DNA of 64,000 nucleotides from an uncultured Pseudomonadota bacterium (lineage in GTDB: Bacteria > Oederibacteriota > Muellerivitia > Muellerivitales > Muellerivitaceae): contig CAWJKT010000009.1 of the NCBI GenBank assembly GCA_963843375.1, positions 96,001-160,000 of the forward strand, read 5' to 3'. Numbering within the stretch: position 1 is the stretch's first letter; each line of letters starts with the position of its first letter. Of the stretch, positions 36,301 to 42,300 are shown in pieces. The position numbers are program-made.

Positions 36301-39300
36301 CAGCCGATTACGCTAAATTTGATCTGAAAAAACCCGCTCTCAATTTTTCAATGCAGTCTCATTCAGACAGACCCATTAGTCGGGTTACCCATTTCGGGGT
36401 TGAAGTTGATTCGCCTATGGAACTTCAGGATTTTCAAAATAGGCTTAACGCAAGTGGTATTGCCGTAGAGGAAGAAAAACAGACTGCTTGTTGCTTTGCC
36501 CGTCAGGATAAAGCTTGGTTCAAAGACCCAGACGGCAATTCCTGGGAAATATTTCACGTGTATGAGCAGTTGCCAATTCATCCTTCTTCCAATTCCAGTC
36601 AGTGTTGTGCCTAATTAATCCATCAGATAAAGGAAATGTAAATGAGTGATCTTTCTAAAAAGATGAATGTCTTTGAACGTTACCTCACCCTTTGGGTTGT
36701 GCTTTGTATGGTGTTGGGTGTTTTGATTGGCAAAGTTTTACCCCAGGTTGTTACGGCGTTACAGCAAATGGAATTTGGCACAGGTAGCCATATCAACATT
36801 CCTATAGCTATTCTGATTTGGTTGATGATCTACCCGATGATGTTGAAGATAGACTTTGCCTCAATTAAGAACGTCGGCAAGCGTCCCAAAGGACTCTTGG
36901 TAACCTTGTTTGTTAACTGGCTCGTGAAGCCTTTCTCAATGGCTTTTTTGGGATGGTTTTTCTTTAAGGTGCTTTTTGTGCCCTTCTTGGGAGCGGAAGT
37001 GGCTAACCAGTATTTGGCAGGTGTCATCATCTTAGCCGCCGCACCTTGCACCGCTATGGTATTTGTCTGGTCTTATTTAGCGGGCGGGGATGCCGCTTAC
37101 ACGTTAGTTCAAGTATCGGTTAATGACCTGATTATGCTGGTCGCTTTTGCTCCCATTGTTCGGTTCTTGGTATCGGGCGCGTCGGGGTTGGAAGTTCCTT
37201 TCCAAGTTCTTTTATATTCAGTCCTTATTTTTGTAGTTATTCCACTCTTACTAGGCGCTGTCAGTCGTTGGCTCCTCATCCAAAAGAGTGGAGCCAAATG
37301 GTTCAATGAAAAGTTTTTGCCCGTATTCCAACCCATCACCATATTGGCTTTGCTGGCTACTCTGGTTTTGATCTTTGCCTTTCAGGCTCAAAACATTACG
37401 GGTAGGTGGTTGGATGTATTTTTAATCGCGATTCCCATTCTTATCCAGGTTTACTTTAACGCGGGGCTTGCCTATGGTTTGATGAAGCTTTTGAAAGTGC
37501 CTTATTCAGTGGCCGCGCCTGGCGCGTTGATTGGTGCCTCGAATTTCTTTGAATTGGCGGTCGCTACTGCGATCGCTTTGTATGGCCCGGGCAGTGGAGC
37601 GGCTTTAGCAACGGTAGTGGGGGTATTGGTCGAAGTGCCTGTCATGTTGTCGGTTTGTTCCATTTGTACTAATACAAAGGGTTGGTTTGGAAAGGAAAAA
37701 TAAACCATGAAAAAGATTCTTTTTCTTTGCGTCGCGAATTCTGGCAGAAGTCAAATGGCCGAAGGAATCGCAAAAGAACTTTGGGGCGATAGCGCCCTTA
37801 TTCAAAGCGCCGGGTCAAAGCCATCATTGGTGAATCCCTATTCCATCAAGGTTCTGGCAGAGATTGGGATTAATGCTTCAGGCCAATATTCCAAGTCGGT
37901 GGCGGATATCGACCCTTCAACAGTGGATACGGTTATTACTCTTTGCGCCGAAGAAGAGTGTCCTGTTTTCTTGGGTAAGGCAGAGAGGATTCATTGGCCC
38001 TTGCCCGACCCTGGTGTTGGGGCCAATAGCGAAGAAGAAAAGCTTCAAAGTTTTCGTAAAGTTCGCGATGAAATAAAAAGCCGATTGAATAAGTTTAAAA
38101 ACGAAATGGGCGTTAAGGCAATTTAATAAAATTTAGTTCAAAAATACCAAAGAACTAACCTTGTCCACGGCGGGGACCTGTAGTAAACAATAATTTTTTC
38201 ACCATTTTGACCGTTTCCTCATTTTTCCCTGAACCTTTTCCCATAGTTTCCCGTAACACTTCGCTCCATGTGTAACATATTAGGAATTTTATTCCCCCCA
38301 GCTTCAACCACAATGGTGAAACTATGCAACGAGACTATCGAAGTGATAGCGACGACACCTGAAAATTTGTCCAAGGAAATGGGATTGAAATAATCAGTGT
38401 TTGTGACTCGGATCATAATGTGAGCCCCCAAAAATCATTTAAAATAATTTTCAGAATAATTTATTTCGCTGTGATCGGGGTCATATTCCCCTGTTACATT
38501 TCGAAGTGAATTCACTAAACCCAAAAAGGAGGAATTTATGGCAAAGACAAATGACAAGGAAGCGACAAAGAAATCGGAGAAGGATGTCTCGAAGGATAAC
38601 CTGGAAGTGGCGGCATATTACCACTGGCAGCAACGGGGGTGCCCAAACAATGATGAATTGTGCGATTGGGTGGAAGCGGAAAAGGAATTGGTCGGAGCCT
38701 CAAAATAAATCTTAATAAATAAATTGCTTTATACGACGCCGCTTGAATCAACCGTGTCCCAAACCCTTGTGGACACGGTTTCGAGCTTAAAGAGCAAACC
38801 GATACAAACGGGAGGCGGAACATGGTTGACGCCGTTATAAAGAAATACGGGCCTTTTTTTGAAAAATTGATACTGTGGGTAATAGAAGGTAAAAAATCCC
38901 CTTTTTGTCGGGACTATCCCCCAAGGTTGAAAACAACTCAAAAATCTTTTCGGAAAATGCGCAATAAAAACAAAGCCTTGGCTGTTCTGGCTCACGCTCC
39001 AATCCACCAAAAAGCTTAAAATGATTACTGGAAGAGGTTCTTGATAGGATACCGAGAAGGTGCCAGCGGAGTTATTCTGACGTGGTAAGAAAAAGAATCC
39101 TCCTCTAGAGGAACCCCGGATGGTTGTTAATCCCGGGGTTTTTTATTTTAGGGTTGTCCACGACGGTGCGTCCAGAAAAGGCAGGTGTGTTCAGCAAGAG
39201 ATAGTCTTGCATGGGTAATAGCCAAAGCCCATTAGCTAGGATGGCAGGCAAGCGGGAAACCTAATGTCTGAAGCCCATCAACAAAGCCATCGAAAGGATG

Positions 39301-42300
39301 GTGAGCGAGTCGTCGGGCCGTAACGAAAGTAAATGCACAGGTGGCCCCGAAAACAATTGCCTCGAAGGCCGAGTCCGCCGTCGTGGGACGAAGGCATCAT
39401 GGGCCAGCGCAGAGATATGGCTGAAGCGCTGGAACACTTCGGCGGGGTGATAGCAACGGCACGATGACAAGGACACGCCAAGCAACTGGAGAAACCCTCC
39501 TTGCCCCAAGCAGAAATGCTTGGAGAAGGGTAAGCCGTATAACCGTGACGCGGGAAAACGGCTGAAGGCGAGAGGGTTTAGGATGGGTTCATGGTAGCGA
39601 CGAAGCGTGGTAATGCCCGTGGAGCGAAGGAACCCTGCTGCTGTTAAGTCTCTCGACAAAACGGAAGGCAGTGACGGTATGAAAAAAACGTCTATCAACC
39701 TGCAAGACCTGAGACGAGAGATATACGTCAAAGCGAAGGCTGAAAAGAACTGGAGTTTCTGGGGACTGTACACTCATGTTTGCAAGATGAAAACGCTTCA
39801 ACAGGCATACCGGATGGCTAAGGTAAATAACGGAGCCCCAGGAATAGATGGGGTAACGTTTGATGCCATTGAGGGAGCTGGAGTGGAGCCATTTCTGGAA
39901 AGCATCCGGGGTGAATTAGTTCAAGGCACGTATAAGCCCGCTCGAAATCGGAAGAAGGAAATACCCAAGGGAAATGGGAAGGTAAGAGTCCTTGGGATAC
40001 CGAACATTCGGGATAGAGTAGTCCAGGGAGCGATGAAGCTCATTCTGGAGCCGATTTTTGAGGCCGATTTTCAAGAAGGGTCCTATGGGTATCGACCCAA
40101 GCGGACCGCTCATGCGGCTGTGAACAGGGTAGCATCAGCAATCGTTTGTAGAAAAACCCGAGTCATCGATGTAGACCTCAAGGCATATTTCGACACGGTA
40201 AGGCATGACCTGCTGATGAAGAAAGTTGCCCGAAGGGTTGAGGATGAAACGGTGTTGGGATTGTTGAAGATGATCCTGAAAGCCAGCGGCAAAAGAGGAG
40301 TCCCGCAGGGAGGGGTTATTTCTCCGCTTCTGGCAAATCTCTACCTCAACGAGGTGGATAAGATGCTGGAAAAGGCAAAAGAAGTGACCCGGCAAGGGAA
40401 GAACGACTATATCGAATATGCGAGGTTTGCTGACGATATGGTGATCCTTGTTAATGGATATCCGCAATGGGAATGGTTGGCAAAGGCTGCCTACCGAAGG
40501 TTACTTGAAGAGTTGACCAAGCTCGACTTACAAATCAACACGGACAAGACACGGATAGCAGACCTAACGAAAGGAGAAAGTTTCGGATTTCTGGGGTTTG
40601 ACTTTCGACAGGTGAAAACCCGTCGAGGGAAATGGGGAGTGAAGTTCACGCCGAAAATGAAGGCTCGGACAACACTTTTAGGCAAGCTCAAGGAAACATT
40701 TCGAAGCTTTCAATCCCAGCCGGTGCAGAGGGTGATTGAGCTGATCAATCCCAAACTGCGTGGATGGGTCAATTACTTTCGGATAGGAAATTCTAGTCGT
40801 TGTTTTAATTACGTGGAAAGATGGGTCGAGAATAAAATCAGAAGGCACATGATGCGTGCGAAGAAGCTTGATGGTTTTGGGCGGAATAGGTGGAGTAGGG
40901 AATGGATAAATAAGTATCTGGGGTTGTACAGAAGTTACCAAATACGTTATTACCAAGAACCGAAAGCACTACCAGTCCAATAAGTCACATAAACTTTGAC
41001 ATGAAGACAACAGGTGAGCGTAGTGCGGGAAATCCGCACGCTACGTTCGAGGAGGCGGGGACTGGAAACGGAGCCAGAAGGCCACCGCACCAGCCCTCGA
41101 CCCTACAGGAGCCATCGTGGACACCTAATTTCCTTGCTTGAGAATAACCCCAAGTGATTTTAGGATTTACGGCCCTTGACCGCCGAGTTCCTTTTTAAAA
41201 CCCTCTGAACCTTATCCCAAAGCTTCTTCGATATGAGGGGTTGGTATTTGCCCTCGTAATGTTGTCCCTTCCATTGGAATGTTCCCGAATACATCTTGTT
41301 GGTGAGGATTTTGTGAACCGTACTCCGGGGAAGTGGCTTATTGCTTTTGCGAAAGACTAATCCCTTGGCTTTGAATTTCTCCGTTATCTCGTTGAGGGAA
41401 TAATCCCCTGAAGAATAGGTTTTGAATAGACGGATTACAAAAGGAGCCAAACGGCGATCCGGTTTGATGGTTCTTTTTCCCGCCTTTCCCAAAATGTTCT
41501 TATAACCCATGGGAGCCACCGAAGGCCAAATCCCCTGTTCCGCTTTTTCCGTCATGCCTTTACGAGTCTCTTCCGAAAGGTTATCCACGTAGTTCTTGGC
41601 CATCAAGACCTTAATCCCGTGGATGAACTTGTCGGCGGATTTGGAGTGGCTTGAAACGACGGCCCCTTCCTTGACCAAATGGATCTCAATGTCGATATCC
41701 TCCAAACAGACGTAATCTTTGAAATTGCGGTATAGGCGGTCGGTCTTCTCGACCAGCAGGTACTTGCAGTTGGAGTTGTTGATTAGGAAATCCACCATCT
41801 TCGCGAAGCCTACCCGACCCGATTGTTTGGCGGTTTCCACGTCGCGGAATTCCTTCACAATCTCGAAACCCTGGGTTTGACCATATTGACGAAGAAGCCT
41901 CAACTGGGCGGGGATTGAGAAGCCCTGCTTTTCTTGTCCCTTCGAGGACACCCGGACATAGAGGACGGCCTGGATGGCTCGACTGACCTTGCGATTTGAT
42001 TTCATTTATTTCCTCCGGTAGATAAGTTAAGGCATAAAGTTTCCATTTCAGAGGATAGGACCTGAGAGGAATAAGGCGAAATGGAGTTCAATCCATTTGA
42101 ACTCAAAAAGTGGTTTTAGAGATTATTTATGGCGGGTTTCCAAAATTTTTGGAACGTAATGATGGAAGTTATTGGGAAGGTTTCTCACGACTTTATGGGA
42201 CTAAGTGGTTTATTGGGGTAAGTCTGAAGGGAAAGGACTCGTGGCGCAAGTGAGTGGCATAAAGGCTATAAGAATCAGGGATGAATGAGGACGGTGTAAG

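Follow-up and report, generated by a model that had tools for sequence, protein, structure and literature searches.

A group II intron that probably homes by base pairing to one arm of a repeated 28-nt palindrome in uncultured bacteria

Class C group II introns such as B.h.I1 are found in intergenic DNA behind intrinsic terminators, where a stem-loop and a very short IBS1 define the target. Reviews describe three kinds of target for bacterial group II introns: homing sites of the ordinary type, terminators and attC (PMC4424553, PMC7923331). The group IIC-attC introns, e.g., S.ma.I2, lack an endonuclease and have as their multi-copy landing site attC, an imperfect palindrome that recurs where gene units end (PMC4424553). 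As far as the account in PMC7923331 goes, these introns do not lie in cassette orientation. Endonuclease-less IIB introns have also been described inside the cassette arrays of integrons and CALINs, namely UHB.I2 and H.ha.F1/F2, and one integron/CALIN IIB intron is located directly after attC in cassette orientation (Sonbol and Siam 2021, PMC7923331). Finally, ordinary IIB retrohoming may also use repeated mobile DNA: the nested introns of Methanosarcina acetivorans home into other introns, and the repeated element is described as a 'perpetual homing site' (PMC4424553).

The intron presented here, L1, lies in the window, i.e., the 64-kb stretch of contig C9 that was analysed. With a probability of roughly 85%, L1 is an apparently intact, recently active IIB-type retroelement that homes to the left arm of a 28-nt palindrome by base pairing and was retargeted from domain V. 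It covers positions 39166-41106 of the plus strand (1941 nt), starts with GUGCG and ends with CUAC (...GACCCTAC at 41106). The start at 39162 proposed in an earlier survey is 4 nt too early; GTGCG opens at 39166. The Rfam model group-II-D1D4-4 matches the core of ribozyme domain I at 39192-39328 (119.3 bits, gathering score 49, E 4e-26). Domains V-VI at 41014-41090 give a marginal Intron_gpII match, 0.1 bit below the cut-off (39.9 bits, cut-off 40, E 3.5e-6); sister copies score 39.9 bits and the two further lineages described below, L2 and L3, 45-51 bits. A GAGC...GUUC helix at 41016-41048 was seen by eye, as was a possible branch A, which is position 41100 and precedes the 3' end by 7 nt; both are unscored. 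The intron-encoded protein (IEP) is a reverse transcriptase/maturase of 434 aa (39679-40983, plus strand) with an intact reading frame, the active-site motif FADD and no endonuclease domain. It matches RVT_1 (1.6e-33), GIIM (3.8e-16) and TIGR04416 (379 bits, cut-off 300). The IEP position and both Rfam scores of the survey were reproduced. At the sequence level, the ribozyme domains, the reverse transcriptase and maturase, the GUGCG...CUAC ends and the EBS1 match identify L1 as a group II intron retroelement.

The palindrome is organised as 11-6-11, one arm being conserved and the other variable. Its left arm TGTCCACGACG forms the end of the 5' exon (39155-39165), and the centre AGGAGC with the right arm CATCGTGGACA starts the 3' exon (41107-41123), all on the plus strand. 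The flanks read ...GGGTTGTCCACGACG, intron, AGGAGCCATCGTGGACACC, and the split copy TGTCCACGACG, intron, AGGAGC-CATCGTGGACA. Hence the survey's finding that a reverse transcriptase-encoding intron interrupts an array palindrome can be read directly in the sequence, the break being the bond between palindrome positions 11 and 12. L1 has the orientation of the upstream genes. A terminator-like hairpin with a T-run (39113-39149, plus strand), visible in the sequence and in the DNA fold, ends the upstream small-gene unit; it is kept in the homologous unit of genome G001, where no palindrome follows directly. An empty-site allele of the L1 locus was not found. The preceding palindrome copy (38162-38189, plus strand), which has 5 substitutions, begins 36 nt past the stop of an LMWPc gene. 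Eight matches to the palindrome occur in the window, compared with none in 100 shuffles. The genome of the host, a soil bacterium (G000), carries 58 copies at up to 6 substitutions, clustered on C6, C9, C10 and C18, and the palindrome was found in 29 of the 32 genomes of the order, with no match in a reversed-pattern control. A reading as a REP element mobilised by a RAYT was rejected, as PF01797 (Y1 transposase) had no match in G000, which is 80% complete.

In two other genomes, near-identical L1 copies (IEP identity 95-97%) interrupt at least nine more palindromes, always at this bond and with differing outer flanks. In end-to-end alignments, L1 shares 94% of its nucleotides with the copy in G018 and 83% with that in G022. 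The G018 copy reads TGTCCACGATG, intron, GGGACCCATCGTGGACA, and its outer flanks are unrelated. Genome G047 harbors 12 copies, ten of which follow TGTCCACGACG and precede GGGACC or GGGAGC and varied right arms; among these ten, eight 5' flanks are distinct. The other two (L024, L031) lie off the palindrome at GGTGT-CG-TCGACG, where the G047 loops would form 5/5 pairs through EBS2 (ACACU) and 5/6 through EBS1. The G022 copy is degenerate and lies between a terminator-like hairpin and its T-run. In view of this location and of its poor IBS1 pairing (1/6), structure may sometimes matter. Overall, L1 was found in 10 distinct palindromes in three genomes, L2 at 19 and L3 at four, and EBS1 fits the end of the exon in all three lineages, which bears out the survey's proposal of the palindrome as a homing site. 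RNA-library contigs contained only intron pieces, possibly from DNA carry-over, and no ligated exons were seen in them. In G000, one compatible palindrome site is occupied and about 26 are empty. All ten L1 sites face GGGACC/GGGAGC, and 7 of the 26 compatible G000 sites face GGTCCC. Pairing to the 5' exon is by itself no explanation for the preference of L1 for GGGACC/GGGAGC.

The position of L1 can be related to two loops of its ribozyme. The EBS1 hairpin (39373-39389, plus strand) has a GUCC/GGAC stem and a 9-nt loop with EBS1 CGUCGU(G) at 39379-39385, and CGUCGU forms 6/6 pairs with ACGACG of the exon (IBS1, 39159/39160-39165). Among 54 distinct relatives with at least 10 targets, EBS1 and IBS1 form on average 5.41 of 6 pairs, compared with a permutation mean of 4.05 and a maximum of 4.37 (n=1000). 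The stem pairs 4/4 in 53 of the 54, with 16 stem variants. The EBS2 loop ACAAU (39353-39357, plus strand) was located by an alignment of 68 relatives and a permutation test. It forms 5/5 pairs, one of them G-U, with IBS2 GTTGT (39153-39157, plus strand). The IBS2 register was set by permutation with 56 relatives, in which EBS2 and IBS2 form 3.88 of 5 pairs on average (permutation mean 2.78, maximum 3.12). Pairing exceeds permutation along one register diagonal, and the best combination is loop offset 0 with exon positions -13 to -9. EBS1 (6-7 nt) thus matches -7 to -1 and EBS2 (5 nt) -13 to -9. For EBS3, five alignment columns are candidates, several of them equally good: they match +1 in 53-58 of the 62 sequences, but the matches track clade membership, the clades being confounded. 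The targeting of L1 is, as the covariation indicates, base pairing with the left arm of the palindrome, and the defined 28-nt target of the survey shrinks to the approximately 14 nt (-13 to +1) that L1 reads.

A 5' exon read by both EBS1 and EBS2 and an endonuclease-less IEP point to recognition of the IIB type. Class C, which has no EBS2 and inserts behind a stem-loop, was rejected for L1, as EBS2 covaries with -13 to -9 and L1 is inside the stem. Among solved structures, the IEP is closest to the GsI-IIC reverse transcriptase, but only at 4e-54, whereas identities of 63-79% are seen with relatives located at IIB-like sites. The IEP is suspected to belong to class F or E, from the host taxa of its relatives compared with intron names in PMC3552965 only. 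Classes D, E and F are tied to IIB in Table 1 of PMC4424553. Among 53 distant relatives of L1, 40 are located directly after a domain V-like hairpin. It is proposed that the ancestors of L1 homed to the position immediately behind domain V in other group II introns, and that changes in EBS1 and EBS2 retargeted it.

Two further lineages use the same palindrome. The IEPs of L1, L2 and L3 are 38-45% identical, and no D/En domain was found in any of the three (Pfam: RVT_1 and GIIM only). L2 is represented on C9 by an ORF-less intron (C9:252514-253296; D1D4-4 61.6 bits, domains V-VI 45.1 bits). As the survey had it, this intron starts directly behind a variant palindrome, at the first base after C9:252486-252513. 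L2-type introns lie flush behind the palindrome (...GGACA) at their 19 distinct sites, between positions 28 and 29, and their EBS1 changes in step with the exon (UGUCCAA/UUGGACA, UGUCCAC/GUGGACA, UGUCUAC/GURGACA, UGUCUAU/AUGGGCA). The first 104 nt of the L2 intron recur at 100% identity in C18:59762-59865, as reported, and the identity reaches about 20 nt into the upstream palindrome. The copy breaks off at 26 consecutive T, beyond which there is other sequence, apparently similar to a sequencing adapter. Because of this ending, what had been taken as a natural fragment is probably a second L2 site cut by an assembly chimera. L3, found in G001 and G012, splits the palindrome between positions 19 and 20 at its four sites, which read GGGACCC(A/G), intron, TCGTGGAC. 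A compensatory change is seen in its EBS1 (UGGGUC/GACCCA versus CGGGUC/GACCCG). The G001 IEP is indeed 38% identical to that of L1 (BLASTP), but this intron does not merely lie inside an array, as noted before; it splits a palindrome. The three lineages therefore converge on one palindrome at three registers (11/12, 19/20 and 28/29).

In the proposed mechanism, the homing site would be the conserved left arm of the palindrome, a repeat that follows genes at dozens of places in each genome of the family. EBS2 (ACAAU) would pair with exon positions -13 to -9 and EBS1 (CGUCGU and G) with -7 to -1, and reverse splicing would then insert L1 between palindrome positions 11 and 12. As the endonuclease is missing, priming of cDNA synthesis would depend on the replication fork. 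As L1 is in sense with the upstream genes, their transcripts would include it, and its removal by splicing would restore the palindrome in the RNA, whereas the DNA would stay split. The palindrome would serve as an abundant and harmless landing pad, against other parts of which the two further lineages would have evolved their EBS1 loops, at 19/20 and just behind position 28.

Other explanations were considered. Guidance by the folded palindrome, with base pairing secondary, as for class C introns at terminators and attC, would suit several observations: single-stranded DNA of the palindrome is predicted to fold (-10 to -14 kcal/mol, z -3.8 to -5.4), L2 directly follows the entire hairpin, the domain V hairpin immediately precedes most of the distant L1 relatives, the poorly fitting G022 copy lies between hairpin and T-run, and the closest solved structure is a IIC reverse transcriptase. 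It is nonetheless improbable. L1 and L3 insert within the stem rather than behind it, both EBS1 (6-7 bp) and EBS2 (5 bp) show covariation with the exon, the two off-palindrome L1 copies occupy non-palindromic sites fitting the EBS loops, and relatives at non-hairpin sites (L060, L093, L099) pair with the exon at 6/6. Moreover, the account in PMC4424553, as far as it goes, reserves terminator and attC targeting for class C. The class C/attC-like mechanism suggested by the survey is not supported, in view of the covariation of both loops, the position of L1 inside the stem and its sense orientation to the upstream genes. Less probable still is a dif-like 11-6-11 site of a tyrosine recombinase, whose cleaved or unwound arm-centre intermediate at 11/12 would be exploited by the intron. 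The layout with one conserved and one variable arm would fit, as would the location of L1 exactly at the arm/centre border. However, this coincidence needs no recombinase, because L2 and L3 insert at 28/29 and 19/20, neither of which is a cleavage border, and base pairing suffices for the position of L1. None of the 14 Phage_integrase matches in G000 adjoins the C9 arrays. Tyrosine recombinases also leave a 5'-OH and not a 3'-OH primer, which counts against this tie.

It is hardly credible that the half-palindromes are terminal inverted repeats carried by the element, which would produce a split palindrome wherever it landed. The right arms vary among near-identical L1 copies (CGTCGTGGACA, TGTCGTGGACA, CCTATTGGACA, CGTGATGGGTA, CTGATTGGACA), intact palindromes far outnumber L1 introns (58 versus 1 in G000; 74 versus 10 in G047, where split palindromes make up about 12% of sites), and the GUGCG...AC ends and EBS1 pairing put the arms in the exons. 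What speaks for carried arms is that identity among copies ends at the outer palindrome edges. This also applies to contigs from other soil and peat samples, in which the intron is identical and the match to the window ends at 39154/39157 and 41123 before diverging. For the preferred reading, these contigs and the intact IEP frame count as signs of recent activity. Somewhat less unlikely, yet still doubtful, is the idea that the palindrome is no mere passive harbour but the place at which an undescribed system for cassette exchange acts, being regularly exposed in single-stranded or hairpin form, with L1 and L3 as reversible locks. If so, this exposure would explain the convergence of three unrelated endonuclease-less intron lineages. 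The neighbouring cassettes would be frozen or fused as long as L1 or L3 splits the site in the DNA, and splicing would restore it in the RNA.

Homing by base pairing, the preferred reading, would add a fourth kind of landing pad to the known target habits: a short host palindrome, family-wide in an uncultured phylum and read by ordinary base pairing. For introns whose target is as compact as about 14 nt, it would provide EBS/IBS rules that are natural and supported by covariation, and it would clearly exemplify how an intron lineage is retargeted, here from domain V of its fellow introns to a repeat of the host. Furthermore, the introns could independently mark the strand of palindrome arrays and the direction in which these are transcribed.

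Compared with the known systems, L1 resembles the IIC-attC introns, as far as these are described, in lacking an endonuclease and in using a repeated palindrome at gene-unit ends as a multi-copy landing site. Unlike them, it seems to be of IIB type with covarying EBS1 and EBS2 loops, has the orientation of the upstream genes and splits a stem instead of following the motif; unlike attC, its site is a 28-nt near-perfect palindrome. The IIB introns of integrons and CALINs are single or truncated cases with poorly conserved flanking exons in the account of PMC7923331, whereas 10, 19 and four independent insertions and EBS-IBS covariation are available here for three lineages. With the nested introns of Methanosarcina acetivorans, in the part described, L1 shares sequence-specific base-pair homing into a repeat, and its distant relatives are nested too. 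In contrast to those introns, the target is not a mobile element but a short host palindrome common to a bacterial family, used in three registers. Like the class C introns at terminators, L1 is intergenic, lies just downstream of genes with little harm to the host and has one copy, in G022, at a hairpin and T-run; its main sites, however, would be defined through 11-12 base pairs to a single palindrome arm, and not through a stem-loop with a very short IBS1.

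The RT-encoding group II intron of the window, of the lineage here called L1, interrupts a copy of the array palindrome, as the survey's finding had it. Its start, given as 39162, was 4 nt too early. The 5' junction joins ...TTTTAGGGTTGTCCACGACG to GTGCGTCCAG and the 3' junction GACCCTAC to AGGAGCCATCGTGGACACC, so that the intron spans 39166-41106 (1941 nt). Both Rfam calls were borne out with the same spans: group-II-D1D4-4 at 39192-39328 (119.3 bits; gathering score 49) and domains V-VI at 41014-41090 (39.9 bits; cut-off 40). The intron-encoded RT/maturase (IEP; 39679-40983, 434 aa) has RVT_1 and GIIM domains and no endonuclease domain, and scores 379 bits with TIGR04416 (cut-off 300). 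Its frame is unbroken and its active site reads FADD. It is present once in the genome studied (G000), which is 80% complete.

The palindrome has the consensus TGTCCACGACG-GGGACC-CGTCGTGGACA, i.e., two 11-nt arms around a 6-nt centre. Eight matches were found in the window against none in 100 shuffles, and 58 copies with up to six substitutions in G000, clustering on contigs C6, C9 (that of the window), C10 and C18. With the 28-nt pattern and at most two mismatches, it turned up in 29 of the 32 genomes searched from the order, in up to 81 copies each; the reversed control gave none. Conservation is higher in the arm upstream of GGGACC; the opposite arm is variable. As single-stranded DNA, the computed fold has an energy of -10 to -14 kcal/mol. 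The palindromes of the window all have the same orientation and lie 9-50 nt past the stop codons of genes on the plus strand, namely a GNAT gene, an unnamed ORF and an operon (MerR, glyoxalase, SBF, LMWPc) ending at 38126. A reading as REP/RAYT elements was rejected, as the Y1 transposase (Y1_Tnp) had no match in G000. The contigs of the closest relatives are titled candidate division FCPU426. One compared genome, G047 (intron copies L022-L032 and L034), is titled 'uncultured proteobacterium' but holds 74 palindromes, whose other occurrences were in the order of this family; this title seems to be mistaken.

L1 has been inserted in the same way at unrelated loci. The copy in the compared genome G018 (IEP 95% identical, 94% at the nucleotide level) lies between TGTCCACGATG and GGGACCCATCGTGGACA, with unrelated sequence further out on both sides. 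G047 carries 12 copies with IEP identities of 96-97%. Ten of them stand between TGTCCACGACG and GGGACC or GGGAGC with variable right arms; they represent eight distinct 5' flanks. Among the ten, one is at the start of a contig and another shares its flank with a further copy. As 74 palindromes remain intact besides the split ones, about 12% of the sites in this genome are split. The remaining two copies are inserted between GGTGTCGTCGACG and TGGTAC, in a repeat that is not palindromic. A degenerate copy in G022 is found between a GC hairpin and a T-run. Furthermore, contigs of four public soil or peat runs (two DNA and two RNA libraries) hold an identical intron. Their match to the window is limited to 39154/39157-41123, the edges of the palindrome, beyond which they diverge. 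These contigs cover neither the window's own flanks nor an exon-exon joint, and those of the RNA libraries are intron pieces only; one of these has a single 90-nt skip, with 28 nt on one side.

The way in which L1 reads its target was studied in an alignment of the first 330 nt of 68 relatives. The exon-binding site EBS1 lies in the 9-nt loop of a hairpin (39373-39389) whose 4-bp stem is paired at 4/4 positions in 53 of 54 distinct sequences and occurs in 16 variants. Between the six bases of EBS1 and the final six of the exon (IBS1), 5.41 of 6 positions are paired on average, against a mean of 4.05 and a maximum of 4.37 in 1000 permutations. Examples of EBS1/IBS1 are AACCGU/ACGGUU, AUCCGU/ACGGAU, GGGUCU/AGACCC, UGUCUC/GAGACA and ACUUUU/AAAAGU; the clade of the window has CGUCGU/ACGACG and a seventh G-C pair. 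EBS2, a 5-nt loop at 39353-39357, 22 nt upstream of EBS1, pairs with exon positions -13 to -9 at 3.88 of 5 positions (permutation mean 2.78, maximum 3.12), and permutation was exceeded only in this register and its diagonal neighbours. In the window, ACAAU is paired with GUUGU at 5/5 positions; in G047, ACACU pairs at 5/5 positions with the two odd sites (GGUGU) and at 4/5 with the palindromes. When the alignment was searched by column for a base that pairs with exon position +1 (EBS3), five candidate columns were obtained, which are confounded with clade. Judged from the covariation of EBS1 and EBS2, exon recognition by L1 is of the IIB type. The analogy with class C-attC introns, drawn in the survey, gives way to recognition through EBS1 and EBS2. 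In the excerpts of PMC4424553 considered here, terminator and attC targeting is tied to class C alone, and in Table 1 of that paper IIB goes with classes D, E and F.

Pairing leaves part of the site choice unexplained. G000 has 76 sites able to pair with both EBS loops (G-U allowed), including 26 in palindromes, of which seven face GGTCCC and one is the occupied site. Since all ten L1 sites are oriented to GGGACC or GGGAGC, further discrimination is likely, be it by 3' exon contacts, by the replication strand or by selection for the sense direction.

A second lineage, L2, uses the same palindrome at another position. BLAST with the ORF-less intron at C9:252514-253296 found it in 12 of 31 genomes of the family, G000 included, with up to 18 matches per genome. 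That this intron starts directly behind a palindrome agrees with 19 distinct flanks (three each in G000, G045 and G042, four in G008, two each in G047 and G018, one each in G005 and G010), in which the first base of L2 stands right behind ...GGACA of the palindrome; in two of these flanks the centre runs in the GGGTCC direction. Two more distantly related introns (G001 and G043) are inserted elsewhere. EBS1, in the loop GCCG[CG-NNNNNNN]CGGC, changes together with the exon: UGUCCAA/UUGGACA in G000, UGUCCAC/GUGGACA in G005, UGUCUAC/GURGACA in G042 and G045, and UGUCUAU/AUGGGCA in G008. This covariation fixes the 5' junction between C9:252513 and 252514, so that most copies begin with GCGUG or UCGUG and one (L103) with the canonical GUGUG. 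Non-canonical 5' ends are seen in clearly proliferating copies, UCGUG/GCGUG in L2 (L101-L126) and GCGCG in a third lineage, L3 (L131-L135).

ORF-bearing forms of L2 exist as well, the IEP in G008 being 39% identical to that of the window. In G047, at the loci L028 and L030 (about 2930-3750), L1 and L2 stand in tandem, the former inside a palindrome and the latter just behind the same one, with the 17-nt piece of centre and right arm left between them. In G018 (C42:350-3018; L018/L105/L116), an L2-type intron is broken after nt 429 by about 1.9 kb with an RT ORF and its own match to domains V-VI. The inserted ORF is 40% identical to the IEP of the window and has one in-frame TAG. The locus is likely to be a nested intron pair, just behind a palindrome. 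A degenerate L2-type 5' piece on the minus strand of G000 (L128, C6:12684-12810; 77% identity over 94 nt, D1D4-4 24.5 bits) is placed behind a variant palindrome whose centre is odd. The 104-nt copy on C18, described as a 5' fragment, is real but is most plausibly a second L2 site cut by an assembly chimera: the 104 nt are followed by 12 nt and a run of 26 T, and contig C18 is probably chimeric at 59866-59930. The sequence past the T-run resembles a long-read sequencing adapter.

L3 is represented by the intron of G001, of the D1D4-6 type. Its IEP is indeed 38% identical to that of the window (45% to that of L2), but rather than merely lying in an array, the intron splits palindromes between positions 19 and 20. 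Two copies in G001, 99.8% identical, occupy palindromes with unlike left arms and flanks, reading ...GGGACCCA, then GCGCG...CUCUAU, then TCGTGGACA. Two ORF-less copies in G012 lie between ...GGGACCCG and TCGTGGAC. EBS1 shifts with the exon (UGGGUC/GACCCA versus CGGGUC/GACCCG), and a relative in G043 (80% identity) has a different EBS1 and a non-palindromic site. The survey had connected the arm/centre position of L1 with cleavage by a recombinase. Since L2 inserts between positions 28 and 29 and L3 between 19 and 20, the position of L1 can be explained without one. G000 has 14 integrase-family matches, none of which adjoins the C9 arrays.

As for the origin of L1, IEP relatives with 63-79% identity are found in records titled Desulfobacterales, Nitrospirota, Acidobacteriota, Rhodothermales and others. 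In a tblastn search of plasmids, the nearest hosts were Bradyrhizobium and Caballeronia (64-65%) and the Bacillus cereus group (51%). In 40 of the 53 relatives whose 5' end could be recognised (32 distinct sequences), a fold-based test found a hairpin with the domain V consensus directly before the intron; one further case, the 41st, is domain V-like by eye. One relative has a D1D4-6 ribozyme core just upstream, and a Bradyrhizobium plasmid copy lies right behind the RT gene of another intron. In these relatives (L037-L099), EBS1 is AACCGU or AUCCGU, which fits the 3' strand of domain V. The relatives in other phyla are introns nested in introns, a case of systematic intron-in-intron homing in a widespread clade that lacks the endonuclease. 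The FCPU426 clade differs from them in both EBS1 and EBS2.

The unit before the window intron (38506-39153) contains a DUF2934 gene (38538-38708, 56 aa) and closes with a terminator-like hairpin and T-run (39113-39149). An Rfam scan of 38150-39170 gave nothing credible. The DUF2934 part also occurs elsewhere, e.g., at C11:427025 in G000. A search of 31 genomes with the 5' flank found no empty-site allele; the homologue in G001 (C1:401663-402313, 76% identity) stops at the terminator and has no palindrome directly behind it. Directly behind the split palindrome, a serine recombinase with Resolvase and Recombinase domains (41160-42005, minus strand, 281 aa) is encoded. Together with the PRiA4_ORF3, ArdC-like and RadC-like genes behind the intron, it lies within 41160-46413, a stretch that resembles the border of an integrated mobile element.

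In the library searched, no publication came up that describes homing of group II introns into REP sequences or into host palindromic repeats of another kind. The known introns nearest in habit are the IIC-attC introns (PMC4424553); by RNA type, the nearest are IIB introns of one integron and one CALIN (PMC7923331).
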